From contig CAYSSX010000010.1 of NCBI GenBank assembly GCA_964434115.1, positions 17,795 through 81,794 on the forward strand: 64,000 nucleotides of DNA, in the 5' to 3' direction. Under the pieces are notes generated by a model that made no database searches, was not told where the DNA came from, and worked only from the letters and a program-made list of their open reading frames with translations. The translations under genes were made by a program, and so were the position numbers. Shown here piece after piece: positions 3-37,700 of the stretch (positions within the stretch are counted from its first letter, which is position 1; each line of letters starts with the position of its first letter). The DNA is from an uncultured bacterium (GTDB lineage: Bacteria > Omnitrophota > Omnitrophia > Omnitrophales > Aquincolibacteriaceae).

Positions 3-518
3 TCTTTTCAGGAGCGCGCGACCCGGGTGTCGCACCGCAACATGGGTCTCCTTGCGCACAAATGCGGGGGGAAAAAACTGGGGAAAATATGCGCCCTGAT
101 CGCGGGCGATGAAGCCCGCCATGAGCAGGCCTATCAGAATCTCTTCAAGGTTTGTCTGAAAGTCGATCCCAGTGAAGCGCTGGTCGCCATGGCCGATATG
201 CTGCTGTCAAAAGTGGTGATGCCAGCGAGACTCATGGATGACGGCTCTGGCCGTGATTTGTTTTCGGATTATTCGATTGTGGCCCAGAAGCTGGGAATTT
301 ATACGACCCGGGATTATGCGGAAATGCTGCTTTTTCTTGCGGAGACCTGGGAAATTGAGAAATTCAAAAATCTTTCGCCCGAAGCCGCGCAGGCGCAGGA
401 AAAAGTCATGAAGACCGCGGAGAAATACCTCCGCAAATCCGAGAGCCTTTCTGCAGCCATCCAGTCAATTGAAGTCAAACCCTTCTCCTGGGTCACCCCG
501 CAAAAAACCCACGCTTAA
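3..518 (+). CDS. Soluble diiron acyl-ACP desaturase (stearoyl-ACP desaturase family), C-terminal part. The 5' end lies outside the window.
   Basis: The frame is open from nt 3, and the GTG at 27 is only the ORF-caller start. The translation (SFQERATRVSHRN...ICALIAGDEARHEQAY...AMADMLLSKVVMPARLMDDG...DYSIVAQKLGIYT) aligns with the C-terminal half of plant and mycobacterial DesA-type acyl-ACP desaturases (FQERATFISHGNTARLA...IAADEKRHE...). The TAA at 516-518 overlaps the stop of the convergent giant gene. Confidence 0.8.
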   Translation, partial: SFQERATRVSHRNMGLLAHKCGGKKLGKICALIAGDEARHEQAYQNLFKVCLKVDPSEALVAMADMLLSKVVMPARLMDDGSGRDLFSDYSIVAQKLGIYTTRDYAEMLLFLAETWEIEKFKNLSPEAAQAQEKVMKTAEKYLRKSESLSAAIQSIEVKPFSWVTPQKTHA

Positions 519-3500
519 GCAGCCATCTCAATGACCAGGCTCGCCTGATAACGGGCCAGCTCTGTTTTCAGGAAGCCTTCCACCACAGAATAGAATCCGC
601 TTTCCGGGTCTTGATAAACACCGGGCATTTGACCGCCGGATCTCGCCAAGAGGAGTGCCGCAAATAAATCCCGGGACTCCGCGGCAAGAAAGCGAATCAC
701 TTCATCAGAAGCCTGCTCTTTGAGTCTTTCGGCATGCAGGGCAAAATGAACAAGCCTCGGATTCCTATCGCCTGCGGTGCCCCTTTCAAAACCTTTCCCG
801 TAGAGCTGATACGCGCGCTGCAAATCGCCTTCGATCGTAAGAATACCGGCAGCGTCACGAAGCTGCTGCATGCGCGGCGTCATCAAGGCCTCAGGATCAA
901 CACCATAAATAATGACCTTGGTGTTTTTGTCCGACCGGGTTTGGAATCCAAGCGCAAAGACGCTCTCATACAAGGGACTCTCCTGCGAGCGGATTTCTTC
1001 ATAAGAAATAAAAACGCGCGCGGGCAGCTGCGCTGTTTTCTCCAGACTCTCCCGGATTCCTCCGCCCGCACCCAGAAGCCTGAGTTCAGAACGGGAACGA
1101 ACACCCTCAGAGCTGGCCGCGTCTTTTTCCTGTCCCCGGTTTTCTTCGGCCATCCGTTCCGCGATACGGTCAAGGAGAGTGTTCAATTCCGGAACTTTTA
1201 ACGCATAAAGAAAAGACAGCGCGTAATCATCATGAAACCAGCCGAAATGATCCCGGGACCGCTGATCCATGGACTTCGAAGCGTACCGGAAGGATTCCAG
1301 AAGAAAAACATCCAGAAAACTCATGTATCTTTTCTCGCCGAGTGCAAACTGCGGGTTCCGGTTATGGTAGATTTTCAGCGCTTCATACTTCGCATCAAAG
1401 TTTTCAAGCCAATCCTGGGCTTCGGGCTTGATTTGAGCACTCAGGACCTCCGAGATTCTTTTCACATAATCACGGGTCTCTTCAGAGGCTTGGTCTAATC
1501 GGTGCGTCAGCTCCTCGGCAACGCGCTCGACCAAAAGAATCAAAAGCGCCATTCTTTTGTTGCGGAAAGCCTGCACTTCATTGAATTCCTGACCTTGCGG
1601 CATGGCGGGCGGCCCATACTTTTCAAGAGATTCCCAAGGCCGGCTCAAATGCTCCAGCAGAATTTCAGGCGCGATCATCAAACCCGGATCCCAGTTGTTA
1701 AGCTCCACAACACGCCTGCGGTTCACAAAATCAGCGTCCAGCAGAACCGACATCAGCCAATCCGTGAGATCCCCGCTCTTTAGTTTTTTTGCAACAGCAT
1801 CAATCTCAAGCATTTGGTGTTTTTCTTCCGAAGAACTCCTGTTCCAGCTCGAGACGAGCGGGTTTCCCGCATCGCGCGGGGCTTCCCCAGACGTTAAGCC
1901 CTCTTCTTGAACACGCAATTCAGAGCGGGAGTCAGCGCTTATTCTTGCGGATTCAACACGCTCTTTAACCTTGGCAAAAAGCTCTTCCGTACCTTTCTGC
2001 TCCACGCCCCCCCAATAAGTTCGTCCAAAATCCCGCGCCGGAATTCCTTCGGGCGGCTCAGGAGAAAGAGATACGAGCTGGATCCGGCGGTATTTGTCGC
2101 CGGGGAAAGGATAATCGGCCACAATCATGTCATTGCCTTTGTGGATCTTTTCGGTCATGGTTGAACCGTGCACATTCCCTGTGAGTTCGTCGCCGAAGTA
2201 ATACCCAAAACCAAGATCTATCTCCGGGCGCTCAGAGTTTTTCACAGCCTCTTCGGCGTAATGCATCAGGGCTTTGGCCTTGTTCGCATCTGCGGAAAAA
2301 ATATCGATCGAAGATTCACCGCCCACCGACAAGCTGAGATGATTCACAAAATCTTCTCCCAGCCTTTGCGCAAGGAGTTCCTTTAACCGGTCAATGATCG
2401 CGGGGCGGATTTCCGGGGGAAGTTTGGTGATGGTGATGGAGGTCGTTTCCGTGTCCGTGACCTGGCTCCCGCGAAGCTGAATGTAAGGCCCTTGCACGGT
2501 CATGGCCTTGTTTCCAAGATCATCAAAATGAACGCGTCCGGGCTGATAGGCTTCCGGGTTTTCCGCCCAGGGCAATTCATAAATAAGCCCGGGATTCTTG
2601 GATGCATCCTTGATGTACGCCGCACGCAGGGTTTCAATGCCCTCGGCATCAAGGCCAAACTTCTTCTTCCCAAACTCCACAAGCACATCATGAATGGTTT
2701 GTTCCACAACAGGCCGGGAAATACGAAGCTTGGCTTCGTAATCGGAATGTTCCACAGCGTTCCCTTTTTCATCAAACGTCACAAACACGGTTCCCGAGGC
2801 CGAGTAAACAGAGAATGAAATTCCTGAAAGAAGTTCCAGCTTCCCCTGTGCTGTTAAATAATCCTTGAGAGGATTTAAAACCTGGTCCATCACGTCTTTC
2901 ATCGGGTTTCCGGAGTTGATCACAAGCCGGACTTTCTCTTCCAGCATCCAGGCGAGTAACTGGATCATCCCCTCCGCGGCGGGCTTTCTCCGGGCTGCGA
3001 GTGTCTTCTGCATATCAAACATAAAAAATCCGCGTTCACGGATGGCATCCCAATTCGCTGAAATCTGGCGGACAAGTTCTTCCTGGGTTCCAATTTTTCT
3101 TTCCGGCGCGGCGGCTGTTTCAATCTTTGCAAAAACCAGGGCTCCGGTCGAAGAAGGATAGGGGCGGGCACTTGCCGCTGAAACAGAACTGACGCCGTCC
3201 TTCCATTTTCTCTGCATGGCATCACGGCTGTTGGCTAAAAGAAAAACTTCCCTCAGAGGGTCTTCCTCTGCCGATTTCCCAAGGGCCTTCATTTTTTCAC
3301 TGTAAAGCCTCTGAACTTCGGCCCCGAGTTCCTGAGCAGCGGTTCCCTTGCCCTCAAATTTATCGCCGATGATCACAAAAGCAACGGCCTTGCCCTCCCG
3401 GGTGATGCCAACAAGATCATGCGGATACGGATACCGTTTCAAATGAATGGAAAGTTTCCCGCCTTCAATAAAGTATTCACCTGAGGCAAGCTGTTCAAGG

Positions 3501-6500
3501 GGCCTGGGCGTTACTTTGACATATTTGCGGAACGGGTTTTCCAGGGCGTCCCGCTCAAGCTCTTCCTGGGTGTGGGCCTGAAGGTACGGCGAAAGATCAA
3601 TCGTCATGCGGCCGTCCTGCCGGATCACTTCTTTAAAACTCTCACGGTTCTCGTCACGCAGACGGACAAGCTCCTGCTGGGCCAGAGATTCCTTATAAAC
3701 ATAGGAATCAACCTGTCCCTTATCGTCCCGATGCGTTTCAATAAACTGGGGGAAAAGATAGACCTGAAAAATATCCTCAAATTGATGCGCGATGTTTTCA
3801 AAAGGTTCAGCCTGCCCTTCGTGCAAAACGCGCTGTCCAAAAAAGGCCTGCTGAATTTCAGAAGCAATATCCGTCTTCGTCAAATCCGAAGTTCTATAAA
3901 CCTTCACGGCGCCGTTTTCACCCGCGCCTTCTTCAAAAGAAAGCTCTTCGGAAGACGGCGCACGGCTTTTATCCTTCCAATTCACAAACATGCTGTAATT
4001 TCTTTGGTTAAGAGGCTCGCCTTCCCGGTGGTAGAGCCTTTTCGAAGCCCCGTCATAGAGAACAAACCAGTCCACATAATAAAGATTGTGATAGGAGTAA
4101 ATGTCCGCTTCACGGTAACCCAAAGGCCCAAGCTCAGCTTCAAGTTCTTCCCAAGGCTTATTGACTCTTCTTCCCAAGGGATCATTCTCTTCCCCGCCCA
4201 TCGCGCGCTCAAAAAGTTCACCATCCCAGTAACTTTTCCTGTTCACATGATCAAAACGGAAATGTCCGCTTGCGGTTTCATTAAACAAAATTCTCACATC
4301 ATTCTTTTGAAGATCGTAAACCTCCACAACGTGCGGTGAAGCCGGTTCAGCGGCGCGCAGTTCAGAACGCTCAACGTTCTGAACGCCTTGCTGTGCTAAC
4401 GCATTAGCGGTGGTGCGCAGTTCGGATCTTGCCGTGACCATCTTCACCCGCGGGCGCCCTTCAAGGAGAAGGCGTTTATCTTCCTGCATGCGCTCATACA
4501 TTTTGCGTGAGGGGTAAAGCTGAGTGGGACTGGGAATCCATTTCCGGACATCTCCCTTGAGGAGAAGCGCTGTCACCGCGCGCTGCATCAAGGCCTGCCC
4601 TTGATAGGCAGGAAAAACATCCGTCCGCGTGACAAAATAACTTTGATCCTTGCTCTCGCCCTTCCGGAAGGGGCCATCACCCAGTCCCTCAAGAAACGTT
4701 TCAGCGTCCTGTAAAGTCACAAACCCCATGGCGACTGGATGATCCGGGTCATTGCTCAAAATCACAAGGTGACTGTTCTTATTTCCAGCCGGGGAGGCGG
4801 CCGTGTAAGCATTCAAAAGCACCACCCGGAAAGGACCGGGCGCTGCGAGGGGCGCTTTTTCTTGAAGCAGGCGGAGAGTCTCCCTGTCAATGTCTTCCAT
4901 GTCCGCATACGAATGGTCGGCCAGAATCTCGTAATACCCGTAGCGATGCAAAAAAACCTCGTCATGGAGAAACCGGATCAACTCCCCCGGGACGGAGGCA
5001 TCGGGATTTCCCGCAGTACGAAGCTCGGAACGGTTCCGGATGACCTCACCAAGAGCTTCCCAGAGGGCCCCGAATTCCGGATCCTGATTGTCGACGCGAA
5101 GGCTTTCAAGGGTGGGATACTCCGCCCGGGGGTGAAAGACCTGCCCGTCATCTCTTGTAAAAGTCTGCGGCAGGGTGTCCTCAAGCCTTAAAAGCTTCAC
5201 AAGAAATGCAGTCCCGCGGGCTGAGGCCGTCATCGCAAGAAACCGCTCGGAGCTTTGGTTCAGATCATGAAAGTAACTCTTTAAAAATACTTCCGAGAGA
5301 TTTTCTTTACCGAGATTTGTGAGACGCACAATCACATCCGCAAGATCCAGGAACCTGTAGGCCCTCTCTTCCTCAGGGGTCATTTCCGGTGTTTTCATCT
5401 TTGTGGTATTGAGGTCTCTGAAAATAATTTCAAAGCGGCCTCTCAAAACTTCTATCCCCATGTTCGCCGGATGCGGAAAGCCGTGATAAAACCCTGCCTC
5501 ATGATAATTTCGAAGCGCCCGTCCAATCGCCTGATAAAGAACCTCTTCGGAGCCTTCGTCCATTTCACCTCCGCTTCGGGCCTGAACGGGCGCAACGGCC
5601 AGCGTCACGCCAGAACCTTCGCGCTGGCCAACCGAAGTCACGCGCCAATCGTCTCCGGTGAGACCCGCGATCACAAACCCCGCGGAATTTTCCTGGAAAG
5701 TCATCCCCGGAAAAGTGCCCCAGGCCACGGCATAATCCGTTCGGAACTGCAGCGTTTCACGGGCACGCATCATCACGGAGAATTCGGTCCGCGCATCTTT
5801 CTCCCGCATGCCTCCGGCCAGGGCCGTTTCTGCCGGAACAGCGTTCAGAACACCGCCCCGGTCAGGCACAAGGTAGCGGCGGACGCTCCCCTGTCCGGTA
5901 TAAGGCTGCACACCACCCGCCTCCGTCAGAATAGGCTTAACGCCTTTGAGACGGAGCTGCGTGATTTGAACTTTTTCCTGACTACCGCTTTTCGGGGACA
6001 CTTCCACCGGGGTTTCAAGACGCAGGTAAACACTGCGTCCTTCCTCGCTGAAATCCCCGTCTTCGTTTTTAAAATAAATCCTTCCCGAGCTTTCCCCCGC
6101 CATCCGGCGGACGTCCTCACGGCTTCCCGAAAGCAGTTTCATTAATACTTCCCGGTCATTCCGCCCGAGCTTGGCAAAAAAGCCCTGGTCTTTTTCCACA
6201 GTCACAACACCTGCCGGATCTTCCCATTCTTCACCGTCCCCAGCTGTCCTCAACTCCGAGCGCTGCATAAACTCGCGCTCGCGGCTGTTCATCACACGCA
6301 GGACTCTTCCGTAAACCTGTTCAAGCTGTTTTCTGATCTCCCCGATTTCTTCATAGTGCCGGGCTGTAAATTGCTTCGCGGCCGCGGAATTCACGGCCCC
6401 GGAACCAATCCGGTTTGCGGCATTGTGCCCGTAAATCAAAGGCTTCACACCTTCCCCGACCTCCGAATAATCGTTGAGCGGGCGGTTCGTCAAATCCTCC

Positions 6501-8914
6501 AGCACCTTGGTGCTTACCCACAAGTCATCCGCCACATCCCTTAACATCGAGTAAGTGACGCTGCGCGGAGAAAAGAGCAGAATGGTCAAAAGATTATTCA
6601 GGCCATGCTCTGTGTTTTCCCTGAAATAAAATAATTTTCGAGCCGGAGAGCCTGACGGCTCCTTTTCGGATGTGATCGAACTGAGTTTCGTCCTTTTCAC
6701 CCATTCCGGGTCAAAATCATACTTGGCAATGGAGTCCCGTATGTTCGTAAGCGCCTCCCCGATTTTCAAAATCTCGGAAGTGCGGGCTTCCTCTTCCCCT
6801 GTTTCGGGATTCTCTTTCAAAAGACTCCGCTCAAGCCCTGTCGTAAGCGGGTAAACAAATTGTTCCCCAACCTCCGAAGGGCCATAACTTTCAAACCCCG
6901 CTTTTTCAAGCGCCCGGGAAGCCACCGTAAAAGAGACTTGATGGAAATTGGCAAAATAAGGAAGCCCGACAACTTTCCGCTCACGCGCCAGACGAAGCGC
7001 ATGAATTTCAACAGCTGAAATCGGCGGTTCGGATAATTTCTCAGGGGCGCTGCTGTATTCCGCACGGAGCTCGGAACGGATTTCGACTAGATAGGCCTGA
7101 ATCGAAGCAATGTTCTCACGCGCGGGATCAAAAAGAATGTCGGCCGGAATCTCAGACTCTATGGACTTAAGCGTTCTTGAAAGAGTTCCATAATCCCTGT
7201 CACCTGCCAGCTGCCGGACAAAATCAAGACGTTCCTGTATTGTTTGGAGAATCTGAACGTACCCCATCTTTCGGACCCGCTCGATGCTCAGGCGATTTCC
7301 GGCCAGACTATTCACAAGTTCTGAGAAAAGTTCTGAAAAGCGCCCGTAAATTTCATCCTCTTGTTGCAGCGGGTCAACCTCGGCAAAATCGTCACTGCGC
7401 AGTTCCGGTCTCGATGAAAGAAGTAAATCCATTTCCGCCAGCACTTCGGCAGAATCCCCGGCCTTCACCTGTTTCGCGGCAGTTTCAACCCGCGTAATAA
7501 GCCCGCGAAGATTTGCCGATTGTTCGGGGTGTAAAACAGGAAACTCCATGGCCCGGGGCGCCACAGAGGCTCTTGCTGCGGCTTCGGGAAGAGAGAGGTT
7601 CCGGTACCCCTGCCGCATCAGCTGCTGGTAGTAGTCTTGATGCTTCCGGCTCACCCCTGTCATGCGGGGAGAAATCACATAGCAGGCATCGCCGCTCCGC
7701 TGAAGCATGGCCTTGATGCTGTCTTTATGAAACCCTCCGAAAACAAGCGCGGAGGCCGCGGGAGCGTACTTCAAAACTTTTTCGATTTTCTTGTCACGCG
7801 CCTGGGCAAGCGTGTAGAAACGGACCGCCTTGCGGATGTTCTTTTCCCACTGCCGGGAAAGCACCAGGGATTGTCCGGATTCTCGAACCAGAAATTTCGC
7901 AAGATGGCGTGTATCAAAATCTTTCAGGGTTCCCTGAAGTGCTTCGTACTCCGCTGAGGACACTTTCATTTCACTAAGGCGCCGCAAAAGCTCAATATTT
8001 TGGGTATAACTAAAAATCCTTAAGCTGTCTTCGCCCTTTAAGAATCTTCCGGCCGTGTTTTTTTCAAGCTTCTGAATCTCGGTGTAAACTCCCTTGGCAT
8101 CAATCGTCTCAACGCCCGGGGTTTCCGGCTTTTCCTCCTTCAGGGCAAGAAGCATCTTAAGCATCGGATATTCCCCCGCGTCTTCGGACTTGTCACCGGA
8201 ATGACCCAAGTCAAAAACACGCTTCACGTAATCCAGAAGCTCGATCTCACCTTCATCCAATCTCTTTTTGAGTTTCATCCACTCTTTAAGTTCATTCGGG
8301 AAAGTCCTGTCCGCGAGTTTTCTGACCTCAGAACTTAAAACCGCCAGATCGCGCTGAGTTTCCTCTTTTTGAGAAACCGATTGCTGAAAGGCCCGGATGT
8401 TTTCAAAGTGCAGCGCGATGCTGTCCGCGCCGATGAGATCGAAATTTTTTTTGCGGTTGATGTGCGCGTATTCTGCGCCGCCGAGCCTCAGCTTATCCAT
8501 CAAGTAGTAAGAGACTTTTTCACGCAGCGCAGAGTCTTGAATCCCTCCGAAATAATCATCGCTCGGAACAAGCCCTTCGTAACCTTCTTCAAAAACAGTT
8601 TTGATCCCTTGGGTTTCCATCAAAAAATTGAGGATTTTCGCGATATTTTCCTGGGCTTCCAGGGAGTCGTGGGCGTCCTGAAGGTAAAAAATGATTTTGC
8701 CGGAGCGGCCGGGATGAAACTCTTCAACCGTCCCCAGAGTTTCCGGGAGGTTCAAAGCCGTCTTGCCCTGGGACGCGGCGGGCGGCACAAAAATAGCGGA
8801 GTCGCCGGGACCGGGGTCCGCATAAACCCGGGGATCTGAAAACGGCAGACTAAGGCAAAGAAAAAGCGCCGTAAGCCGTATCAACAAGTGAAGTTCAGGG
8901 GATCTTTTTTGCAA
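515..8914 (-). CDS. Giant exported multidomain protein, 2799 aa, paralog of the 6161-aa ORF. It has a signal peptide, a shared N-terminal domain of about 400 aa, and 6 RSELR punctuation motifs.
   Basis: Single uninterrupted ORF with a TTG start at 8914-8912. The N-terminus MQKRSPELHLLIRLTALFLCLSLPFSDPRVYA-DPG reads as a Sec signal peptide. Residues ~60-420 (IFYLQDAHDSLEAQENIA...KTVFEEGYEG...GGAEYAHINRK...FGGFHK) are ~50% identical to the corresponding region of ORF 28725..47210. Exact RSELR motifs sit at nt 7064-7078, 5018-5032, 4415-4429, 4355-4369, 1913-1927 and 1079-1093. Confidence 0.8.
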   Translation of the reverse strand: MQKRSPELHLLIRLTALFLCLSLPFSDPRVYADPGPGDSAIFVPPAASQGKTALNLPETLGTVEEFHPGRSGKIIFYLQDAHDSLEAQENIAKILNFLMETQGIKTVFEEGYEGLVPSDDYFGGIQDSALREKVSYYLMDKLRLGGAEYAHINRKKNFDLIGADSIALHFENIRAFQQSVSQKEETQRDLAVLSSEVRKLADRTFPNELKEWMKLKKRLDEGEIELLDYVKRVFDLGHSGDKSEDAGEYPMLKMLLALKEEKPETPGVETIDAKGVYTEIQKLEKNTAGRFLKGEDSLRIFSYTQNIELLRRLSEMKVSSAEYEALQGTLKDFDTRHLAKFLVRESGQSLVLSRQWEKNIRKAVRFYTLAQARDKKIEKVLKYAPAASALVFGGFHKDSIKAMLQRSGDACYVISPRMTGVSRKHQDYYQQLMRQGYRNLSLPEAAARASVAPRAMEFPVLHPEQSANLRGLITRVETAAKQVKAGDSAEVLAEMDLLLSSRPELRSDDFAEVDPLQQEDEIYGRFSELFSELVNSLAGNRLSIERVRKMGYVQILQTIQERLDFVRQLAGDRDYGTLSRTLKSIESEIPADILFDPARENIASIQAYLVEIRSELRAEYSSAPEKLSEPPISAVEIHALRLARERKVVGLPYFANFHQVSFTVASRALEKAGFESYGPSEVGEQFVYPLTTGLERSLLKENPETGEEEARTSEILKIGEALTNIRDSIAKYDFDPEWVKRTKLSSITSEKEPSGSPARKLFYFRENTEHGLNNLLTILLFSPRSVTYSMLRDVADDLWVSTKVLEDLTNRPLNDYSEVGEGVKPLIYGHNAANRIGSGAVNSAAAKQFTARHYEEIGEIRKQLEQVYGRVLRVMNSREREFMQRSELRTAGDGEEWEDPAGVVTVEKDQGFFAKLGRNDREVLMKLLSGSREDVRRMAGESSGRIYFKNEDGDFSEEGRSVYLRLETPVEVSPKSGSQEKVQITQLRLKGVKPILTEAGGVQPYTGQGSVRRYLVPDRGGVLNAVPAETALAGGMREKDARTEFSVMMRARETLQFRTDYAVAWGTFPGMTFQENSAGFVIAGLTGDDWRVTSVGQREGSGVTLAVAPVQARSGGEMDEGSEEVLYQAIGRALRNYHEAGFYHGFPHPANMGIEVLRGRFEIIFRDLNTTKMKTPEMTPEEERAYRFLDLADVIVRLTNLGKENLSEVFLKSYFHDLNQSSERFLAMTASARGTAFLVKLLRLEDTLPQTFTRDDGQVFHPRAEYPTLESLRVDNQDPEFGALWEALGEVIRNRSELRTAGNPDASVPGELIRFLHDEVFLHRYGYYEILADHSYADMEDIDRETLRLLQEKAPLAAPGPFRVVLLNAYTAASPAGNKNSHLVILSNDPDHPVAMGFVTLQDAETFLEGLGDGPFRKGESKDQSYFVTRTDVFPAYQGQALMQRAVTALLLKGDVRKWIPSPTQLYPSRKMYERMQEDKRLLLEGRPRVKMVTARSELRTTANALAQQGVQNVERSELRAAEPASPHVVEVYDLQKNDVRILFNETASGHFRFDHVNRKSYWDGELFERAMGGEENDPLGRRVNKPWEELEAELGPLGYREADIYSYHNLYYVDWFVLYDGASKRLYHREGEPLNQRNYSMFVNWKDKSRAPSSEELSFEEGAGENGAVKVYRTSDLTKTDIASEIQQAFFGQRVLHEGQAEPFENIAHQFEDIFQVYLFPQFIETHRDDKGQVDSYVYKESLAQQELVRLRDENRESFKEVIRQDGRMTIDLSPYLQAHTQEELERDALENPFRKYVKVTPRPLEQLASGEYFIEGGKLSIHLKRYPYPHDLVGITREGKAVAFVIIGDKFEGKGTAAQELGAEVQRLYSEKMKALGKSAEEDPLREVFLLANSRDAMQRKWKDGVSSVSAASARPYPSSTGALVFAKIETAAAPERKIGTQEELVRQISANWDAIRERGFFMFDMQKTLAARRKPAAEGMIQLLAWMLEEKVRLVINSGNPMKDVMDQVLNPLKDYLTAQGKLELLSGISFSVYSASGTVFVTFDEKGNAVEHSDYEAKLRISRPVVEQTIHDVLVEFGKKKFGLDAEGIETLRAAYIKDASKNPGLIYELPWAENPEAYQPGRVHFDDLGNKAMTVQGPYIQLRGSQVTDTETTSITITKLPPEIRPAIIDRLKELLAQRLGEDFVNHLSLSVGGESSIDIFSADANKAKALMHYAEEAVKNSERPEIDLGFGYYFGDELTGNVHGSTMTEKIHKGNDMIVADYPFPGDKYRRIQLVSLSPEPPEGIPARDFGRTYWGGVEQKGTEELFAKVKERVESARISADSRSELRVQEEGLTSGEAPRDAGNPLVSSWNRSSSEEKHQMLEIDAVAKKLKSGDLTDWLMSVLLDADFVNRRRVVELNNWDPGLMIAPEILLEHLSRPWESLEKYGPPAMPQGQEFNEVQAFRNKRMALLILLVERVAEELTHRLDQASEETRDYVKRISEVLSAQIKPEAQDWLENFDAKYEALKIYHNRNPQFALGEKRYMSFLDVFLLESFRYASKSMDQRSRDHFGWFHDDYALSFLYALKVPELNTLLDRIAERMAEENRGQEKDAASSEGVRSRSELRLLGAGGGIRESLEKTAQLPARVFISYEEIRSQESPLYESVFALGFQTRSDKNTKVIIYGVDPEALMTPRMQQLRDAAGILTIEGDLQRAYQLYGKGFERGTAGDRNPRLVHFALHAERLKEQASDEVIRFLAAESRDLFAALLLARSGGQMPGVYQDPESGFYSVVEGFLKTELARYQASLVIEMAA

Positions 8915-9101: not shown

Positions 9102-9371
9102 ATGACTGATGACCCTTTTGGAAACGAAGAGCTTCAATTTCCGCTCGACTGCCAATTCAGAATCATTGCCGAGAACCGCGAAGGCATGCATTTTGTCATC
9201 GAGACAATCTTAATCGAACAGGGCGTCACGGCACCGCTTGAGCCGCAGAATCTGTCCCACGGGGGTAAATATCAATCCTACCTGGTGATGGTCCGCGTCG
9301 AATCCAGGGATCACATGGGCCGGATTGATGCCGCGCTTCGGAACATCACCGGCGTCAAGATGGTTCTTTGA
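9102..9371 (+). CDS. YbeD/UPF0250 (DUF493) family small protein
   Basis: 89 aa. The sequence ...FPLDCQFRIIAEN...YQSYLVMVRVESRDHMGRIDAALRNITGVKMVL is typical of DUF493. Its stop overlaps the next start (ATGA at 9368-9371). Confidence 0.55.
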   Translation: MTDDPFGNEELQFPLDCQFRIIAENREGMHFVIETILIEQGVTAPLEPQNLSHGGKYQSYLVMVRVESRDHMGRIDAALRNITGVKMVL

Positions 9372-10096
9372 TGGATGTAATACCCGCCTCTTTTTTCCGG
9401 ATCCGCGAGCGCCGCTTGGAACCGGAACTCATGGATGACCTTTCGCTCGACGCGGAACTTCACCGCCAGGCGCTCAGGGGCCTTGAACGCATCAACGCCT
9501 TAAGCTTGACTGCGGAGACTTTTTGGAAACCGATAAAAGAATTTTATTTATCCGAAAAAAAACCCCTGCGGATCCTGGACATAGCCTCCGGCGCCGGCGA
9601 TATTCTGACCCGGCTTGCGTTGAAAACCCGCAAAGAAAACCTTCCCTTTGTTTTTGAAGGCTGTGATTTTAACTCCCAGGCCGTCGATTATGCAAACCAC
9701 CGCGCGAAAATCCGGAACCTCCCTGTTTCATATTTTCTCCACGATGCCTTAAGGGATCCCATGCCGGAAAGATTTGACATCGTAATCAACAGTCTTTTTC
9801 TTCACCACTTGTCCGAAGACGGGCTTGGGCAGTTTTTTAAAACACTTCATGCCTCACGGGCCCGGCTCCTGCTCATCTGTGATTTGAAACGCTCACGCGC
9901 GGGCCTGTCGCTTGCTTATTTAGGCACCCGTCTTTTGTCACGCTCCCGGATCGTTCACTGGGACGGCCCTCAATCCGTGCGTGCCGCCTTTACAACCGCT
10001 GAGATTCTTCAGTTTGTGGACTCCGCCGGACTTCCCAAGCCCCGGCTTCAGACCGTTTGGCCCCAGCGCTACTTACTGGCCTGGCACCGTTCATGA
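9368..10096 (+). CDS. Class I SAM-dependent methyltransferase
   Basis: Motif I ILDIASGAGDILTRLA, post-I acidic residue and motif II/III spacing. Translationally coupled to flanking genes. Confidence 0.75.
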   Translation: MMDVIPASFFRIRERRLEPELMDDLSLDAELHRQALRGLERINALSLTAETFWKPIKEFYLSEKKPLRILDIASGAGDILTRLALKTRKENLPFVFEGCDFNSQAVDYANHRAKIRNLPVSYFLHDALRDPMPERFDIVINSLFLHHLSEDGLGQFFKTLHASRARLLLICDLKRSRAGLSLAYLGTRLLSRSRIVHWDGPQSVRAAFTTAEILQFVDSAGLPKPRLQTVWPQRYLLAWHRS

Positions 10097-27547: not shown

Positions 27548-28174
27548 TTACAAATGCATTCTTATCACACCGCAAACTTTTCCGACCAGACGGAAGGCCT
27601 GATCCGCCTTCACAACAATCGGTTTGTACACCGGATTCTCGGCCTTGAGTTCAATATGCGCGGCTCGTTTGTAATATCTTTTGACCGTGGCTTCGCCGTC
27701 GACGAGGCACACCGCAATCTGGCCGTTTTCGCAGTCTTTCTGGGGCCTCACGATCACCAAATCGCGGTCCAGAATGTGCGCATTCACCATGCTGTCCCCT
27801 TTGACGCGCAGCAAAAAACTATCCCTCACCGCACCCGACTCCCGGCTCACCACAAAATGCCCCTCGATATTTTCTTCCGCCAGGATCGGAGTTCCGGCCG
27901 CGACCTGTCCGACAATCGGCAGCTTGACCAAACCGTCGGGCTGAACGTCGAACCCATCATCATCGAGAATCTCAATATCCCGGGCTTTGGGAGAGCGGCG
28001 GATGTACCCCTTCTTTTGAAGGACATTCAAATAATCCTGCACGGTTCCTACGGCCCGGAATCCGAAATGGGTCTGAATCTCCTGCAGCGAAGGAAAATTC
28101 CGGCTTCGCGCGCGGGTTTTCAGGAGGTATTCCAGGATTTTCCTTTGATTGTCTGTTAAGGGTTTCTTTTCCAT
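27548..28174 (-). CDS. lexA: LexA repressor (S24 peptidase)
   Basis: N-terminal winged-helix LTDNQRKILEYL plus the S24 Ser/Lys dyad region VKGDSMVNAHILDRDLVIVRP...ATVKRY. The likely start is MEKKPL at 28174 with a GGGAGG RBS. The track gives an alternative start at 28192. Confidence 0.85.
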   Translation of the reverse strand: MEKKPLTDNQRKILEYLLKTRARSRNFPSLQEIQTHFGFRAVGTVQDYLNVLQKKGYIRRSPKARDIEILDDDGFDVQPDGLVKLPIVGQVAAGTPILAEENIEGHFVVSRESGAVRDSFLLRVKGDSMVNAHILDRDLVIVRPQKDCENGQIAVCLVDGEATVKRYYKRAAHIELKAENPVYKPIVVKADQAFRLVGKVCGVIRMHL

Positions 28175-28724: not shown

Positions 28725-31700
28725 ATGAAAAAAAATCTGCCTCTTAAAATCATGGCCGCTTTCACGGCGATTTCCCTGATGACAGATCCGGGAAACGTCT
28801 ATGCCGCCACCGGTCTGCCCAAAGCAGCTTCTTCCCCAGCAAAAGCTCCCGAAATTTCAGAAACTGCCGGCCAAATGGAAGATTTTTTTCAGGGAACTTC
28901 CGCAAAAACTATTCTCTACATTCAGGACGCCCATGACTCGCTTGAGGCGCAGAAAAACATCGCGTCCCTGATTTCTCAATTCACCGAAAAGGACGGGGTC
29001 AAAACTGTTTTTGAAGAAGGGTATGAAGGCCCGGTTCCGACAGACCGCTTTTTCGGGTTCATACCCGCCTCTGAAATCCGGGAAAAGGTTTCCGGTTTTC
29101 TTTTGGACAAGCTCCGGATCGGGGGCGCGGAATATGCCCATATCAATCGGAAGACAGACTTCAAGCTCATCGGCGCGGACAATCTGGACAAATACAAAAA
29201 AAACATTGAGGCCTTCCGCGCGGCAGCCAAAGAAAATCAAGTCATTGCCCGCGATCTTGACGCCATCCTTACGGAAATCGAGTCCCTGGCGAGTCAGCGC
29301 TTTCCCAAGTCCTTCCGCGAATGGGTGAAACTACGCGACAAATACGACTGCGCGGCGGTTGATCTTCTAGACTACTTAAAGCGCACAAGAAAAATCCTTG
29401 AGACTTCTCCCTCCGGCCTTGCCGGCGTTCCGGAAAAAATTCCGGCCATCGAACTTTTACTTAGGGCTTCGGCTTCGGATCAGAATGAAACCCTGACCAC
29501 TCAAGCCAAAACCATTACCCCTCAAGCCCTGTTTCAGGATCTCGCAGCTTTGGATACCCTGACCGCAGAACGGTTCCTGACCGCGGAAGGAGACCGCCGG
29601 ATTTTTCACTACCGCGAAGCTTTGCATCTTCTGAAGCGCCTTAATCAAATGGAGGTCACGCCGGCCGAGTACGCGGCCTCTCAAAAAATGATTACCGGGC
29701 TCAACACCCGGGAACTGGCCGACTTTATCGCACGCGAATCCAAAAAGTCCCTGGTTCTTTCCAAGGCATGGGAAAACAGCATTCAAAAAGCCTCAGCGTT
29801 TTATGAATTGGCAAAGCAGCGTGACGAAGCCATTGAGAAAACACTTTCGGACTTCCTTCAGCAGCCGGATGAAACCACCGCCGTCCTCGTCTACGGCGGA
29901 TTTCACAAGGCCAACATTCTGTCGATTTTTCAAAAACTGGGCGTTTCCTACGGCATCATCACCCCGAAAATTTCAGGCCCGGACCCCGTTCATGAACGGT
30001 ATTACAAGGAACTCATGGCCGTGGGCCTGCATGACTATGAAAAAACCGTTCTCCCCGCCGCGGGAACTGCCGCACGGGCCACACGACCGCCATCTCTGTT
30101 TGTGGAAACTTTTGGCGAGGCCTCAATCCAGTCGCTTTACCGGACGGTTGAACAAAACCCGGATACGCCGCTTGAACTTCTTGAACGCGAAGTCCCAAGG
30201 TCAGAACTTCGCTCGGAAGCCAGCCCATCGGCAAATCTGATTGCCGCGGATTCAGCGCTTGCGGCCTTCGGCCGAGGTTTAGGCGTCAACTTTAATGTTC
30301 CCGAATCAGCGCTGCGAAACGGTTACTGGCAATACGAAATCAATCCGCTGCCAGCGGAAAGAAAAGTCATTCACAAGCGCATGATTCCGGCCTATAAAAA
30401 CGGCAGTGAACAGCTGCCCACCCATTTGCGTTTAATTTTCAAAGACCGCCAGCCGCTTCTTATTGTCTCTGACGGTATTGCCTGGGGCCAAATCCCTGAA
30501 GACATTCGATCGGCCAATGAAAAGGCCTTCATTGCCCGGTTCGCAGGCGTTTACAAACACCTTTCTCCGGGCAAGGCTCAGAAAAAAGGACGCGAAGAAT
30601 TCTTAAGATCCATTTCAAAAAAACAAATTGCTCTTGGGTTTTCCCTTGTACCCGAAGAAGCCCAGCATCCTTTCTTACTGGCCCAGAGATGGTTCGAAGC
30701 ACAAACCCAATCAGTCGGTACGTACTCTACACAGTTCTTTGATGTGACCAAACCCGAAGACCTGCAGTCCCCCATCCTCACCTTTGAGGGTGTCTACAAA
30801 CCCTACACGGTGAGCAGTCATCTCTTCAGGTCAGGGATCCGTCCTGGGAAAAATTCCCTGGTTTATGTTTTAGGATCAGGGTCGGGCGCGGATGCTCTCC
30901 GCGCCGCGGAAAAGGCCAAAGGCCAGATCCGGATTGTGGCCTCCGACATTGATTCTTTGGCCGCTGAAAACACCCGCTACAACGCTGCACGAAGCCCTTA
31001 CAGTGCAGTCATTGAAGTCCACCGGGCAGATCTTTTTAATATCCCCGGACGGCCGGAAGGTGAACGGGCTGATCATATTTACTTCAACCCTCCCTTGAGC
31101 ATGAATGCAGCGGACGGAAACCTTGCCACGGCAGATGAAGGCATGCGTGTCCTCACCCGCTTCCTGACCGAAGCACCGGATCATCTGAAAGAGACGGGCA
31201 CACTTGAACTCACTTATACCGAGACGCCTGAATTTCTTCATAAAGTTTATTCCCTCGGCTGGGAGCCAGCACTGATTGAGGGGCTTCATCTTTCACGTAA
31301 ACATTTTCCGAACAACCGTTCAGACTATGTCCGCTTCACACTTCGCCGCATGTCCACCAGCCGGACAGCGGAGCTGCAAGAGGTTGTGTCGGATTGGGCA
31401 AAACTGATTCCCCTGCAGAAAAAAACCCGGGGAGGGCCCAATCCCTTTACCGCGTCAGACCTGGCACTGCTGAAAGCCTTGAAAGGAAAGTATTCGGCAT
31501 CCCAGGATTTCACGGGCAGGCTTATTTCAAAAACGCTCTATGCGCTTGAAAAAATTTCACAGGGTCTTACACCGCTTCGTCCCGAAGACGACAAACGCTT
31601 CAACCTGAATTATCCGCAGACGCTTCCCGTCCCCGGCCAGGTTTACCAGCATTCCCAGCGCCAGGAGCTCACGGTCCAAGTCACGCGCCTTGAAAGCAAC

Positions 31701-34700
31701 GGCTCTTTTAATATTCAGTCTTTTCAAGACGGACGGTCTCAAGGCCCTGAACAAATAGTTCCCGAAGAACAAACAGAGGCTTTCCTTCGGGAATTTGCTC
31801 CGGTCCGCAGCGAACTGCGCATGGTGTCTTCTTTTGAAATGGAGCTGGCCTTCGGAGATCTTGCCAAGACTCCTACTTTAAGCGGCGGAAGAAACGATGA
31901 CTTCCTTTACGAGAACGGGAAGAAAGTTGCTGTCATTATGCCTTGGTCGAAATTTATTTACCGGGCGCTGGATTCGGACGGGCGCGAAATTCCCGACCGT
32001 ATTTACAAAATCACTCATTACGCGTCCGAAAACGAAACGCTTTTTGAGGAAGCCAAAAAGATTTTCGCTCTACAGACTCCTGGCGTTTCCAAATTGCAGC
32101 GCATCGGGACGCTGAAAAGCGGCGGCATGTGGGTGGAACTCAAAGGCATTGCTTCAGCACGTTCCATGGACCGCGAAATTTTCGGCAGAACGCCCCGGCT
32201 TTTCAATGTCCTGATCCGGGCCGGAGAGCTGTTAAAAGGTATTCATGAACGCGGGATCGTTCACGGCGATATCAAGCCGGAAAACCTTTTGATCAATAAC
32301 GCCCAGGAACTCGAATGGATTGATTTCGGCGGCAATTTCACACGCGGTTATGTGGCTCTGGATGAGGAAAAGAACCCGATCGAAGACAAAACTTCCCCGG
32401 ACGTGGATGTTTACAGTTTCATCATGATCATTGCGCACCTTTTGGATCATCAGATTCAGGCACAGTCTCCGGAAATCGGCAAAACTCTGCGCCGCATGCG
32501 GGACGAATACCTTCACCTCATTCTCAAGGACTGGACCTTTCAGCGTTTTGAAGAACTGCTTCAGATCGGGGTATGGACAGAGAAGCTGACCCCGCTTCCC
32601 CGTAAAAAATGGCCGAAAGACATGTCGGAAATCACTGAAAAATTAAAACACGATCTTCAGGAACTGTCGGAAAACCATCCTGAATTGTTCACAACCGCGG
32701 TTGAAGAAGAAAAGAAGCTGATTCACGCAAGCGTTCATTCGTCCGAAACCAGGGACACCGCACAGAAACTCAAGCAGCTTCTCGACACTCTTCAGCGTGA
32801 CGGCGCGCTTCACCCCGGGAAAATTGCGGTCACGGATTTGAGCCGGGGCGCGGTCGCTCCCGCGTTCAAAGAACAGGTCGAGGCCTTTTCTCATCAAAAA
32901 GAAATCAGCATTGTCATGGAAGGGGCTTATCTTGACGATTGCTGCCGGCAGGCCTCCTGGACGCTTCTCGAGTATGCCCGGAACAATCCCGAAAAAAATC
33001 TGAACCTCCACTTCCCCGTCGACTTGATCGCGTACCCTCATGACTTTCTCGCTGAATCCGATTCAAAAGAAAAAATCAGCGCGCTGCTCTTTAACCTTGA
33101 GGCAGACGCGGCGGGCCTTTCTTACGAAGTCTTCGTGGACGGTGTAAAAACTGAAAGCACTGATGCGCCAGCCGGCCCCCAGGAGCCGGTTCGCGTGAAA
33201 CTTTACCTGTGGTCTGATTCACTGCTCATGGCCCAGACCGTGACTGAATCCCTCAGGCCCGGTTCCGGGGACCAGAACACAGATTCCCGGTCAGAGTTGA
33301 GGCAGCCCGGGGAAACAAATCCCCTTATCCAAAATCTTTTTTTTGAAAAAGAAATCACGCCTGAAACGATTGCCGCGGCGGAAGCCCTGATTCCAAAACC
33401 CATTCTCGACAGACTGATCCGGGAAGGCTATGAGCTTCCTAAGGGATTCAAGACCCAAGGGGCTCCGGGAGCCGCCCGAAAATTGATTTTGGATATCCAA
33501 AAAGGCGCCGGATCTCTGCAAATTATTTTAAAGGACAGGAAAAACCCCAGTTATGAATTTTTGAAAATTCCGCTCAGCGTCAAAGGGAAACAGCTCGGCC
33601 TCGGCTTCGGCCATTTGAATCAATTCAGTGAGGCAAAAACCGCTTATCCTGGGTACGACGACCCTGTCTTTGCCTGGTGGTTCCTGAAAAACCTCGTTCC
33701 TTTTGCAAAGCAAACAGGCTTTGACGATTTCGACCTTATTCAAGGCCCGCTTTCTGATGATGATTTAACAAAAGCCGGTTTTAAACTTCGCGACGAAGAG
33801 TCTGGCGTTCCTTTATGGATTTATGACCTAAAGCTGCGGGAATCCCGGTCTGAACTAAGGAACGACGGCGAGCGGTTGGAAATCCCGCTGGGAGAAACCC
33901 GGAAAGTGACCGTCGCGGCAGGCGAAAAAATTCTTGTGTCGGGTTTTGATCCGAAACGAAGAACCTCGGCACTGATTGAAATAAGATCCGTTGAAAAATC
34001 CCCGGGAAGAGAAATTGGGGGCCGTTTCAAAGCCCCGCGCCGTGAAGCGGAAATCCGCATCTCTGCACCGCCCGAAATTGTCATTTTGAGGGACACGGAA
34101 TGGCTGGAGTTTCTTTCGGACCACGAAAACCCGGACGCGTCCGTCAACATTTTTGGGCATTGGAACCGTCCGGCACTTTGGGCACTCCGGGACAAACTGA
34201 TCGCGAGGAGCTTTGGCAGGCGCTTTATGAGCTGGCGCGCGTATCTTCCGGAAGAGAGAAAAGTCTACCTCATGGACCTCAATACCCGGGCCCGGGTCGA
34301 GATTGAAATAACGAATACGGATATCGAAAAAAATGAGGCGGACCTGATCCTTCGTCCCGTCGTGAGCGCAGAATTTGGAACAGGGTATTTCGTGCAGGCC
34401 TTTTCAAATTCGCAGCAGCCTGTCTCTGCTATCCGTTCTGAATTGAGCCGAGCTAAAATCAATGAGACAGAGCTCAGTGAAGTCAAAACGCACGCGCAGC
34501 GGGTGGCTGCTGATTTCGGTTTTCCATCCGAGTTCACTAGCTTTGCTGTCCTGGATAAAGTCCACGCGCCAGAAATCGATCCGGATTTGACGGCCTACCT
34601 TGTAAAACTCACAGTCCTTCTTCCCTCTTCCACGGAAACAGAAAAAGAATTTTTAATCGGTCTTGATCAAAACCGCCGGCTTGCGGCGGGTGCCTGGCTG

Positions 34701-37700
34701 ATACCACTCAATGCACAAGAAAAGACTTTTCAGATGGGGCAAACCCGGGCCTTCATCTCCCAAAAGGGCTTGATGCAAAGAACCCTCACCCTTGCCTTAA
34801 AAAGCGGTGTCATCAACACATGGTTTTCAGATACCGAGTACAACCGGTCAGATGATGCGGAAGACATGTATGACCGCCTGATGAAAGACCCGGAACTTAG
34901 CATCGAAGAAATTCAGGACCAGTTCAAGGTGAAGCTCCGTACCCGCTCAGAACTTCGTGCTTTGGCGTCTAACAATGCCGACGCCCCCGCCCTTCTTGAG
35001 GCCTATCCCAAGCTGAAGCAAATCTCGGATGCATGGGAAGAATTTCTTAGAAACTCGGAAGTCGACCGCAATAAATTCCTGAATGCTTATGAAGGCGGCG
35101 CTTTTGTTCGCTCCCCTTTCCAGTGGATGAACTTCATGAAAGAGAACTGGAACCTGAATGCCCAAAGCCGCATTCTGGATGTGGGCAGCGGCAACGGGCT
35201 TGCGGCCATGGCTTTTAATATTCTCACCGGCGCCCAGGTCACATCCATTGAGATCGATCCCATGCGCTGGGTGGTGCTCCAGAATTTTCTCACTTTCCTG
35301 AAGGATCAAAAAGGGCTCGAATTTCCAGGGGTCCGCTTTGAGCAGGGCGATTTTCTAAAATACCCGCTTGAAGGCGTGGATTTCATTTATTTTTATTACA
35401 CGCATCCGGTCGTGCATCAAGCCCGCCAGGGTGACGCCATTGTCGATCGCCTCGAAAATGATCTTCCTCAGGGTGCTGTTTTTGTAAGTCCGGGATTTTA
35501 TCTTGAAGCCGAATACAGCCGCATGCTTCTGAGAAGAATTAACCGTGAAGCCTACTTTGCAGAAACTTCTCTCCATTACCGTGAGGCCAGGCTTCCCCCA
35601 GGAAATCCTCTTCAGCACACACGCACAGCCGTGGTGCTGACAAAACGTATGGATGGGGCGATTCCTGAAAATCCTCCGCGCTCCGAATTGAGAGCTGCTG
35701 AAATTCCCGCGGAGCTCGCAGGCTTCAATTCGAACGCACCTCTTTGGGATTTTCTGAAATCCTTCGGCATTGATCCGTCAAAAGCAAAAATCGAAAAACT
35801 CGAAGGCCCTTGGGGACGCGTGCGCGCAGCCCAGCATGAGGTTTTTGGTGTCCTCCCGGGCTCTGAACTTGACGCGGCTGTCATGGAAAGTGCATTTGCA
35901 GTTTTTGACGCACAGGAAATTCGCGAGCGCCTCCGTCAAAATGGACACCCGGAAGATTCCGCCCTTCAATACCTTTATCTGCTGACTCATGAAAACAAAC
36001 CTGCAGCGTTTGTCTGGGCCATTCCCGGAGCTGCCTTTGAGCCCATATATTATTATCCGCTCAGAGGCAGAGAACAGCAGGCCCTTTGGCCTTCTGCAGA
36101 AGACAGGGGCTCAGACGGAGCCGCGTTAACACTTCCTCCGGAGACCGAGCTTTTTATCCGGCATTTTCACAAGAAAGATTATGGGAAAAACCCGGTCATG
36201 CAGGGCGGCTTGCCGTTGAGCACTCTCGGGCAGGGACTACCCGGAGCACAATTAAGAACCTTTGAAGAAGGCCTCGCTTTTCCTACGGTGTTTAGTTTAA
36301 ATCACGCCAGTTCAAAGGGGCTTGTCGCTGCCGCGGACCTGCTTATTAATAACGGTGTTCTCAGCGTCCGGGATAAAACCATTTCCGAAATCGGCTCTGG
36401 AGCCGGATGGATTGGAACCCAGATGACACTTCGAGGAGCCAGGGAAGCTCATCTGTACGACCTAACCTTGATCAAAGCCGCGAACGCGATGAGCACAGCG
36501 AAGCTCTTCGGAGCGGGTGAACGGGTTCACACTTACCGCTCCAAATCCGCCGATATTCTGCCTTCAAGCGACGTTTACTTCTGGAACATTCCAGATTTTT
36601 CGAGCAGCGCAAGAGATCTGTCAGGCAGCATGCCTCTTGATCAGAAAGCCAGCATCGACGTCAACAATAGAATCCGGATTGAGAGTGTTCAAAAAGTGTT
36701 TCATGAACTCTTGAACGCCTCTCCCGCCAGCGCGTCGTTTCTCGTTAGAATCAACCCGCTTGATGAATCAGCCTTCCGCGGCATGCTTAAAGAATCGGGA
36801 TGGGAGATTCATCCGAAAGCCGCCGGACTTATCCAAAACCCAGGAAGAGGCGGATCTTATTTTCTTTTGAGACCGGAACTTCAGGGAGCCGAAGCCAAAA
36901 CCCGTCAGGCCGAGGACAAACTTTCGCCAGGCCTGCAGAATAATCCGGAGCTGCTTGAAGCTTTCAGGGAAATCGGCCGGGATCTTCTCCCCCTCGGCAA
37001 TCAAATGCCAGTGCTGCTGGTTGAAGGCATGCCGGGGTCGGGGAAATCTTCACGCGCCAAGGATCTCAAAGCGGTCCTCGAAAGCGAAGGCCGAAGAGCG
37101 GTCATCATTCACAGTGAAAGTTATCTTCGAAACGGCCGCTACGACAAGCCTCTTAAAGGTTTCTTCGGCCTGCTCTTCCGGTGGCTCACCCGCCGCCCGG
37201 CCCGTGAACTCCTGGCTTACGCGGTGAGCATGTTTGTCAACGAAGGCACTGTTGCAAACTGGATCCAGCAGATTCAGGAAATCCAAAAGGAACCGGAAGG
37301 TTCGGGATTTTTAAAGATTAATGGAAACCCAAGAGATGACGTCTATATTGGTCCTGAGACGATCTTGATTATAGAAGGCACGCTATCCTCCGTCTTATTT
37401 GCCTCAGTTCCGAACGTCAAAAAACTATTCCTTGATCTTTCAGGTTCAAAAATACGAAGTCAGTTTATCCGCAGAGCCCTTCGGGAAACAAACCTGGGCC
37501 CGGTCTATGCTTTCTTCAAAGCATGGCTTATGGTTCCTGAAATCGCGGTCCGCTTTTTCAGAATTCTTTCACGGAATTTTGATTTTATCTTGAACCTTAC
37601 GGATGAAAAGAGTCCGGTGCTAACCCGGCCGCACAAACTTTCAGGTCAGCCCCATGCCGCAAGTCCGCGGTCTGAGCTCCGGGCTGAAAAATCTGGCCAG

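Follow-up and report, generated by a model that had tools for sequence, protein, structure and literature searches.

Members of the Omnitrophota encode giant 'multi-enzyme' proteins of 10,000 amino acids (aa) or more, for which cleavage has been suggested (10.1101/2023.11.21.568195; 10.64898/2026.06.07.730766). Their cargo includes methyltransferase, HAD, ROK kinase, NUDIX, HD and other domains, and most have a signal peptide or transmembrane segments (10.1101/2023.11.21.568195; 10.64898/2026.06.07.730766). In one of these studies, the absence of known cleavage points blocked the analysis (10.1101/2023.11.21.568195). Here, we analyze a 64-kb window, the whole stretch of 64,000 nucleotides (nt) taken from contig CAYSSX010000010.1 of an uncultured Omnitrophota bacterium, which encodes two giant proteins punctuated by the pentapeptide RSELR. 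We find that RSELR is the local form of R-S-E-x-R, which marks module boundaries in a very large family of Sec-exported modular proteins. Searches of the papers available to us matched 'RSELR' only to software names, and a search on polyproteins found no paper linking them with Omnitrophota.

The two open reading frames (ORFs), A (515..8914, minus strand, stop codon included; 2799 aa from a TTG start) and B (28725..47210, plus strand; 6161 aa), have the same layout: a signal peptide, an N-terminal domain (N-domain), cargo segments (7 in A and 12 in B) and a C-terminal domain (C-domain). A six-frame scan of the window found seven copies of RSELR in A and 13 in B. The preliminary description of this DNA had listed six copies in A, all of which do encode RSELR in the frame of the minus-strand ORF; its total fell one short, as a further copy lies at 6248..6262 (aa 885, RSELRTAGDGEE). 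Its remark that RSELRTAG occurs twice implies the unlisted copy. The other copies in A start at aa 613 (7064..7078), 1295 (5018..5032), 1496 (4415..4429), 1516 (4355..4369), 2330 (1913..1927) and 2608 (1079..1093). Those at aa 1496 and 1516 open and close a doublet (RSELRTTANALAQQGVQNVERSELRAAE) whose members are indeed 20 aa apart, and the last adjoins the C-domain on its N-terminal side. In B, the motif starts at aa 492 (30198..30212), 1028 (31806..31820), 1522 (33288..33302), 1708 (33846..33860), 2074 (34944..34958), 2319 (35679..35693), 2982 (37668..37682), 3274 (38544..38558), 3442 (39048..39062), 3812 (40158..40172), 4525 (42297..42311), 5202 (44328..44342) and 5990 (46692..46706), the last again adjoining the C-domain on its N-terminal side. 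Degenerate copies occur as RPELR in A (aa 502, 7397..7411) and as RSELS (aa 1904) and RPELQ (aa 2716, 36870..36884) in B. The RPELR of A lies where the first boundary after its N-domain would be, at the same distance from that domain as the first RSELR of B.

Neither chance nor composition accounts for these copies, as judged from residue shuffles and from the background rate in other ORFs: shuffled proteins contained on average 0.011 (A) and 0.016 (B) copies, and the six-frame scan found no RSELR in any other real ORF of the window. A single stray RSELR at 37402-37416 lies in a non-coding frame and is preceded by a stop. A 690-aa radical-SAM ORF (55823-57895, minus strand) has one RSExR, not RSELR, which fits the background rate and which we take as chance.

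The giant proteins of the window belong to a large family. Searches with the N-domain returned only Omnitrophota or metagenome proteins, and 149 relatives emerged when one genome was scanned for each species; their named records are nearly all Omnitrophota metagenome-assembled genomes (MAGs). Genomes have several paralogs each, and one MAG has six or more. When 1.84 billion representative proteins were searched exhaustively with a profile, 9455 clusters (at 50% identity) matched with E <= 0.001 and 6112 with E <= 1e-30; in the best 150 of the clusters found, the domain is always N-terminal and protein lengths run up to 6726 aa. Family members are mostly 1,000-7,000 aa long. For detailed analysis we used 80 loci with family ORFs (L001-L080) and a second, independent set of 138 proteins (P-numbered); combined analyses cover 220 proteins. 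At the 80 loci, family ORFs hold 356 R-S-E-x-R in 215,014 aa (1.66 per 1000), versus 23 in 159,572 aa of the other ORFs (at most 0.14 per 1000), and most of those 23 fall in four ORFs that resemble fragments of further family members. The independent set gave nearly the same density (688 in 420,553 aa, 1.64 per 1000). When over-represented gapped 5-mers were ranked with no prior assumption, RSExR came first in about 137 of the 220 proteins. The preliminary description had named a compositional quirk of the organism as what would undo its reading; the motif is instead dense in family ORFs and rare in their neighbors, and is thus family-specific.

The architecture of the family is constant: signal peptide, N-domain, n repeats of motif plus module, a final motif and the C-domain, with up to about 20 modules per chain. 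Clustering of the 1336 segments from the 220 proteins gave 628 clusters, of which 419 have a single member. No part other than the N- and C-domains recurs, and the 220 proteins have no universal third module; the commonest cargo, an APH-type phosphotransferase, is present in 18 of them, and epimerase, NUDIX and HD enzymes and a polytopic membrane module occur as well. Pfam and NCBIfam models gave no match to the N- and C-domains and weak or no match to most cargo. Four members (L035, L038, L062 and P0187) have no recognizable punctuation and keep both terminal domains.

What is conserved in the window is a peptide and not a DNA repeat, because codons vary at every synonymous position. As the preliminary description had noted, codon use differs from copy to copy: the first Arg is encoded by all six Arg codons (CGT, CGC, CGG, CGA, AGA and AGG), Ser by TCN or AGY, and Leu by all six of its codons. 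The peptide is identical in 20 of 20 copies, yet there is next to no information at third codon positions or in the flanking nucleotides; with codon tests in the window also weak (p 0.03-0.9), we rejected a DNA repeat or nucleotide signal there. Across the window and L001-L080, motif codons do depart from the rest of their ORFs when counts are stratified per ORF: CGY at the first Arg (295 observed, 153 expected), TCN at Ser (356 versus 255), G-ending codons at x (155 versus 96) and CGG at the last Arg (135 versus 93). Most of this bias is the usual mark of strongly constrained residues, because TCN and AGY codons cannot interconvert without loss of Ser. Invariant residues of the N-domain serve as a comparison: its Ser is 100% TCN and its Arg 59% CGY, versus 79% CGY for the first Arg of the motif. 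The G-ending x codons are what one would expect if Met, Val, Leu, Thr and Ala often replaced one another in single steps. AGY codons for Ser are almost absent, which suggests that copies of the motif did not arise anew but were passed on or duplicated together with their linkers.

The motif sits in linkers, at the edges of modules. A logo of 370 sites has information only at the five motif positions and at the residue that follows (+1). Bulky hydrophobic residues drop to a fraction of 0.18-0.23 beside the motif, versus 0.33 overall, and this dip spans about 15-20 residues. When paralogs no more than 80% identical are aligned, identity is 55-61% in the columns of R, E and R and about 22% in the flanks. 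Homology also starts and stops there: 28% of BLAST high-scoring segment pairs outside the N-domain start within 10 aa of a motif, versus 5% under random placement, and 56% end within 30 aa of the next motif, versus 14%. The clearest single case comes from L001, an orthologue of B from a related genome (N-domain 74% identical). Past its first RSELR, L001 goes straight on to a module 87% identical to the one behind the second RSELR of B. What it lacks is the 536-aa methyltransferase module that B has between its first two sites (aa 492 and 1028), an indel bounded exactly by two motif copies. A decayed site is visible as well: the degenerate RPELQ of B closes a module that in L064 makes up an entire segment. 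The median length of internal segments is 284 aa (quartiles 127 and 487). Of the inter-motif intervals in the 220 proteins, which have 1385 motifs in all, 88 span 30 aa or less, as in the doublet of A; such crowding would do no harm to cleavage sites and would be strange in a structural element. As in polyproteins, therefore, a short recognition sequence is reiterated at the boundaries of independently folding units.

How might the motif be read? At +1, Pro is depleted (1.6% versus 6.2% in the surrounding linker, p = 9e-13) and Ser, Ala, Thr or Gly is favored (51% versus 30%, p = 9e-43); no such loss of Pro is seen just ahead of the first Arg. This is the bias that would be expected of a P1' residue if the chain were cut behind the last Arg. 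Within the motif, a small residue and a hydrophobic one separate R, E and R, a spacing that would suit recognition of an extended strand. The fourth residue varies across the family (V 102, L 80, M 71, A 51, I 23, T 15 and S 8 at the 356 locus sites), and some lineages have RAExR or RPExR instead. Within a genome it can be nearly fixed. It is Leu at 21 of 21 sites in the window, in two paralogs with N-domains about 42-43% identical, and at 31 of 31 sites in six paralogs of the genome JAUYMS, whose N-domains are 40-50% identical; in CAYGIT it is Ala at 16 of 21 sites in three paralogs, and other genomes are mixed. The fourth residue is thus a property of the genome and not of the gene or paralog. 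Such uniformity across diverged paralogs is what a reader shared genome-wide predicts, and it supports the single processing or assembly pathway that the preliminary description had proposed for A and B, a proposal also supported by their membership in a family of one architecture with a family-specific motif.

One lineage has swapped the motif altogether. L024 (JACQQS010000037.1) has no RSExR, and its family ORF carries 11 copies of x-G-F-G-[AV] between aa 570 and 3288. The first, at aa 570, lies just past the N-domain, doublets are 17-41 aa apart, and the last, 183 aa from the C-terminus, aligns with the RSExR column that precedes other C-domains. That positions are kept while the sequence changes argues for a recognition signal co-evolving with its reader, and against a structural need for these residues. 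Candidates for other such dialects did not hold up: the over-represented 5-mers of P0090, L078 and P0069 are ordinary internal domain repeats.

Each gene encodes one chain, in which a signal peptide, an N-domain of the TIKI/TraB/erythromycin-esterase type, a string of unrelated whole enzymes (methyltransferases, kinases, a HAD-like hydrolase, NUDIX, HD and epimerase enzymes) and a C-domain ending in [AS]A follow one another, with the motif in an exposed linker before each module. We propose that a single factor, shared by all the paralogs that a genome has, reads the motif as an extended stretch. This reader would most likely be an endopeptidase encoded elsewhere, cutting between the last Arg of R-S-E-x-R and the small residue that follows, and the cut would release the modules as separate proteins. 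On present evidence, cleavage at RSExR by some enzyme seems to us moderately probable. That a separate, trans-acting peptidase both reads and cuts the motif is a more tentative proposal, to which we would give somewhat less than an even chance.

Several observations weigh against this proposal. No candidate peptidase is conserved beside family genes, and the window holds none except LexA. The codon bias of constrained residues does not account for the surplus of CGY codons at the first Arg or of CGG codons at the last. One site of B, at aa 3274, is followed by Pro (RSELRPEEL), the sole copy to be so. The conservation of a C-domain at the very end of the chain suggests that the intact chain matters at some stage, and since motif-free members exist, the N- and C-domains must have a role independent of the motif. 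Finally, many cargo enzymes need adenosine triphosphate (ATP) or S-adenosylmethionine (SAM), which is hard to square with export unless they are delivered into another cell. The combination of a Sec signal peptide with ATP- or SAM-dependent cargo suggests such delivery, and this would fit the parasitic or predatory lifestyles proposed for Omnitrophota; we offer both points as speculation.

If the motif is cut, an enzyme within the chain could be responsible, and the N-domain is the obvious candidate. As the preliminary description had stated, A and B share a homologous N-terminal domain, with 42% identity over 449 aa by BLAST, and a common signal-peptide type. Both proteins start with a basic stretch, then a hydrophobic stretch and VYA, as is typical of Sec substrates (A, aa 1-32, 8819..8914, ...LTALFLCLSLPFSDPRVYA; B, aa 1-27, 28725..28805, MKKNLPLKIMAAFTAISLMTDPGNVYA); this assignment is made from sequence, and the n/h/AXA-like pattern recurs family-wide. 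A simple hydropathy scan found no further membrane-spanning segment in either protein. The N-domain of B (aa 41-491, 28845..30197) gave an AlphaFold2 (AF2) model of the TIKI/EreA/ChaN-type fold from 27 sequences, with a predicted local distance difference test score (pLDDT) of 88.8; that of A (aa ~53-500, 7415..8758) is TIKI/TraB/EreA-like through its identity to B and family alignments. In the model, the core is a parallel beta-sheet with flanking helices, as in the TIKI fold, and this alpha/beta core is broken by a helical insertion of about 225 residues. Like its sequence, in which Pfam and NCBIfam searches detected no match of either N-domain to TraB_PrgY_gumN, Erythro_esteras or Cofac_haem_bdg at E <= 0.01, this insertion sets the N-domain apart from the TIKI/TraB/PrgY/erythromycin esterase/ChaN superfamily. 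The TIKI family has a 2His/2Glu catalytic set (PMC6254334). Invariant in 82 N-domains are Q67-D68-A69-H70, E74, E98, E136, H139, R142, E315, E350, R366 and G391-G392-F393-H394, of which D68-x-H70 follows strand 2, E98 follows strand 3 and H394 follows a late strand. The putative correspondence to the 2His/2Glu set was judged by order and secondary structure, and the first acid is Asp, not Glu. From these sequence and model features, the N-domain is probably an active hydrolase of this superfamily.

An endopeptidase N-domain would cut its own and paralog chains at RSExR, much as MARTX toxins have their effector modules freed by a cysteine protease domain. It is the sole enzyme-like part present in all 220 proteins, its putative catalytic positions are invariant, and its superfamily includes sequence-specific endopeptidases (TIKI and RRSP). 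It may also act as a free enzyme, as standalone exported N-domain genes exist: P0010 (L081, 10001-11296, on a 461-kb contig) encodes a signal peptide and N-domain only (431 aa, no cargo), and P0007 and P0011 qualify by protein length, the standalone sizes being about 430-450 aa. A large ORF beside P0010 is motif-free and unrelated. On the other side, the superfamily also includes esterases and non-enzymes. More telling is the lack of covariation with the motif. The fourth residue is fixed by genome across N-domains only 40-50% identical, and no clean column of the N-domain follows the Leu-only genomes; L024 pairs the chemically unrelated GFGA with an unremarkable N-domain (5 deviations at conserved columns versus a family median of 6); and motif-free members keep the domain fully conserved. 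These three observations argue against the N-domain as the reader, and we regard autoprocessing by it as unlikely.

The tail of the N-domain has a further feature in several lineages, a double element R-[AP]-E-[ST]-R-x-x-x-W...A-R-A-E-[LIV]-R at about aa 455-520 (P0150, P0158, P0141, P0081, P0110, L041, L051 and L053). The matching stretch of B (aa 443-462, ...ARATRPP...) is a low-confidence segment of the AF2 model. The element could be a first processing site or a pseudo-substrate.

The other constant part of the chain bears on whether the motif is cut at all. By BLAST, A and B have only their first ~450 residues in common and share no cargo; their last 170-190 residues are related at profile level only. 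These are the C-domains, which occupy aa 2613-2799 of A (518..1078) and 46707..47207 of B and end in ...LVIEMAA and ...LVIAYSA. Complete family proteins have a diverged alpha/beta C-domain whose last residue is invariably Ala, and an [AS]A terminus is found in 106 of 138 proteins and in 22 of 25 complete ORFs. The AF2 model of the C-domain is poor (pLDDT 57.5); it is predicted to be alpha/beta and gave only generic Rossmann-like matches. Its last helix often contains an RSExR-like string 17-22 aa before the C-terminus (P0009, P0049, L012, L041, L069, L006 and L050), which reads RSELR in P0009 and P0049 and RSEVR in L012 and L069. In the window the same helix has KTELA in A (518-590) and LSDLD in B (within 46692-47207).

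Alternatively, then, the motif could be a docking site on a chain that stays intact: a chaperone, export or assembly factor would bind each boundary, with R, E and R on one face of an extended strand and the small and hydrophobic residues on the other, and would keep the chain translocation-competent or arrange its modules. Family specificity, linker position, the genome-level fourth residue and the swapped motif fit docking as well as they fit cleavage, and the conservation of the far-end C-domain, with the RSExR-like string in its last helix, suggests an intact-chain role and recognition in a folded context. However, the exclusion of Pro and the preference for small residues after the last Arg are typical of a scissile bond and unneeded for docking, functionally unrelated and shuffled cargo gives no reason for tethering, and doublets 7-30 aa apart are frequent. 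We consider docking without cleavage improbable. Least likely of all, and in our view very doubtful, is that the motif is a by-product, whether a recombination scar or substrate, an RNA-level signal for transcript processing or translational pausing, or a favored inert linker: module indels and exchanges do fall exactly at the motif and its codon use is unusual even per ORF, but a scar would neither stay 55-61% identical against 22% flanks nor carry a genome-specific fourth residue, the window copies use all Arg and Leu codons and both Ser classes around an identical peptide with nearly uninformative third positions and flanks, and invariant Ser and Arg of the N-domain show the same kind of codon bias.

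The cargo segments of A and B are proteins of different kinds. We scanned each inter-motif stretch on its own, with Pfam applied to all 21 segments of A and B above 20 aa. ORF B contains four distinct class-I methyltransferase modules, a protein-kinase-like module and a P-loop kinase-like stretch, and ORF A has a weak match to HAD (Cof-type). Most segments have no Pfam, NCBIfam or PDB match, the PDB sequence searches covering three large segments. Two segments of B show peptidase-like signatures by eye and no Pfam match at E <= 0.01: aa 3442-3811 (39048-40157) has a JAMM/RadC-like HISIHNHP...S..D, and aa 3812-4524 (40158-42296) has an M23-peptidase-like PHLHFAV.

The genes around the family offer few clues. 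The preliminary description had suggested looking for a conserved neighboring protease or chaperone, and clustering the neighbor ORFs of 81 loci gave none; the commonest neighbor, an ABC ATPase about 4.5 kb away, occurs at 8 of the 81. Within the window, the neighbors are ordinary chromosomal and housekeeping genes. A lexA gene (27548-28192, minus strand; S24 peptidase and LexA DNA-binding domain) is divergent from ORF B across a 532-nt spacer, in which we found no palindrome of 10 nt or longer and no notable operator-like palindrome upstream of B. A small conserved minus-strand ORF at about 28240-28490 is also found upstream of the L001 orthologue. At 9368-12389 (plus strand) lie adjacent genes for a SAM methyltransferase, a flavin-dependent (FAD) monooxygenase and a type III polyketide synthase (chalcone-synthase-like), a trio that we take to resemble alkylresorcinol/alkylquinone (Srs-type) clusters.

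Taken beyond this window, our observations give about an even chance to a general Omnitrophota polyprotein strategy. Thousands of chromosomal genes would each encode up to about 20 enzymes in one Sec-exported chain, to be cut by a genome-specific endopeptidase at R-S-E-x-R (in one lineage at x-G-F-G-A), with the terminal domains serving in export, in quality control or in delivery, perhaps into the cells of a host or of prey. If this holds, it would be a first for bacteria, a widespread cellular polyprotein system, and would provide the cleavage rules that have been missing for the Omnitrophota giants. The motif also offers a rational way to split giant proteins for structure prediction and annotation, within a very large unannotated family headed by what appears to be a new branch of the TIKI/TraB hydrolase fold. 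Should modules be released outside the cell or into a host, the family would amount to an inventory of effector enzymes in a phylum believed to have parasitic and predatory members. Synthetic polyproteins could also make use of the motif and its reader as a new orthogonal cleavage system.

Parts of this arrangement are known from other systems, the nearest being gingipain/HagA proteins, viral polyproteins and MARTX toxins. Gingipain/HagA proteins of Porphyromonas gingivalis have a Sec signal peptide, a conserved N-terminal region and domains freed by cuts after Arg or Lys, together with a C-terminal domain needed for a later export step, a beta-sandwich signal of the type IX secretion system (T9SS) with its own NCBIfam and Pfam models. 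The family shares with them the Sec start, the conserved N-terminal region, the several domains and the conserved C-terminal domain. However, gingipain cargo consists of adhesin domains and family cargo of diverse enzymes, and the tail is not of the Por secretion type: neither C-domain of the window has an NCBIfam match, the final segment has no Pfam match, and the predicted fold is alpha/beta, at low confidence.

Viral polyproteins resemble the family in how the chain is punctuated. Flavivirus NS2B-NS3 cuts between (K/R)R and (G/S/A), and potyvirus NIa and picornavirus 3C process polyproteins at sites of their own. As in these, unrelated proteins lie in one chain and a short, lineage-specific site is reiterated, the presumed scissile bond being flanked by a basic residue on its N-terminal side and a small one on its C-terminal side. 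Unlike viral polyproteins, family members are encoded by cellular, chromosomal genes with several paralogs per genome, are Sec-exported and probably do not carry the protease in the chain, and their cargo is metabolic and regulatory enzymes rather than replication proteins.

In cargo logic the family resembles MARTX toxins, the multifunctional autoprocessing RTX toxins of Vibrio and relatives. These too are very long secreted proteins with a variable cassette of unrelated effector enzymes, whose modules are exchanged between strains and set apart by linkers, in MARTX toxins with a short signal for cleavage. One of their effectors, RRSP, belongs to the same fold class as the family N-domain. 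The machinery differs. MARTX toxins leave by type I export without a Sec signal peptide, whereas A and B have a Sec-type one; clustering of neighbors found no conserved transporter beside family genes, and the resistance-nodulation-division (RND) and outer membrane efflux protein (OEP) genes of the window (59255-63917) lie 12 kb away, with no pair of this kind conserved beside family genes. MARTX toxins have RTX/glycine-rich repeats and a C80 cysteine protease that cuts after Leu and is activated by host inositol hexakisphosphate, and neither RTX repeats nor a C80 domain appeared in the Pfam scans of A and B. In their place, the constant parts of the family are a TIKI-like N-domain and an alpha/beta C-domain, and its signal is R-S-E-x-R.

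The giant proteins already described from Omnitrophota come from the same phylum and carry the same kind of cargo, and the studies of them reported no punctuation motif, shared terminal domain or cleavage point. A sharply defined boundary motif found across the phylum makes it directly testable whether giant Omnitrophota proteins work as single chains or as cut pieces.

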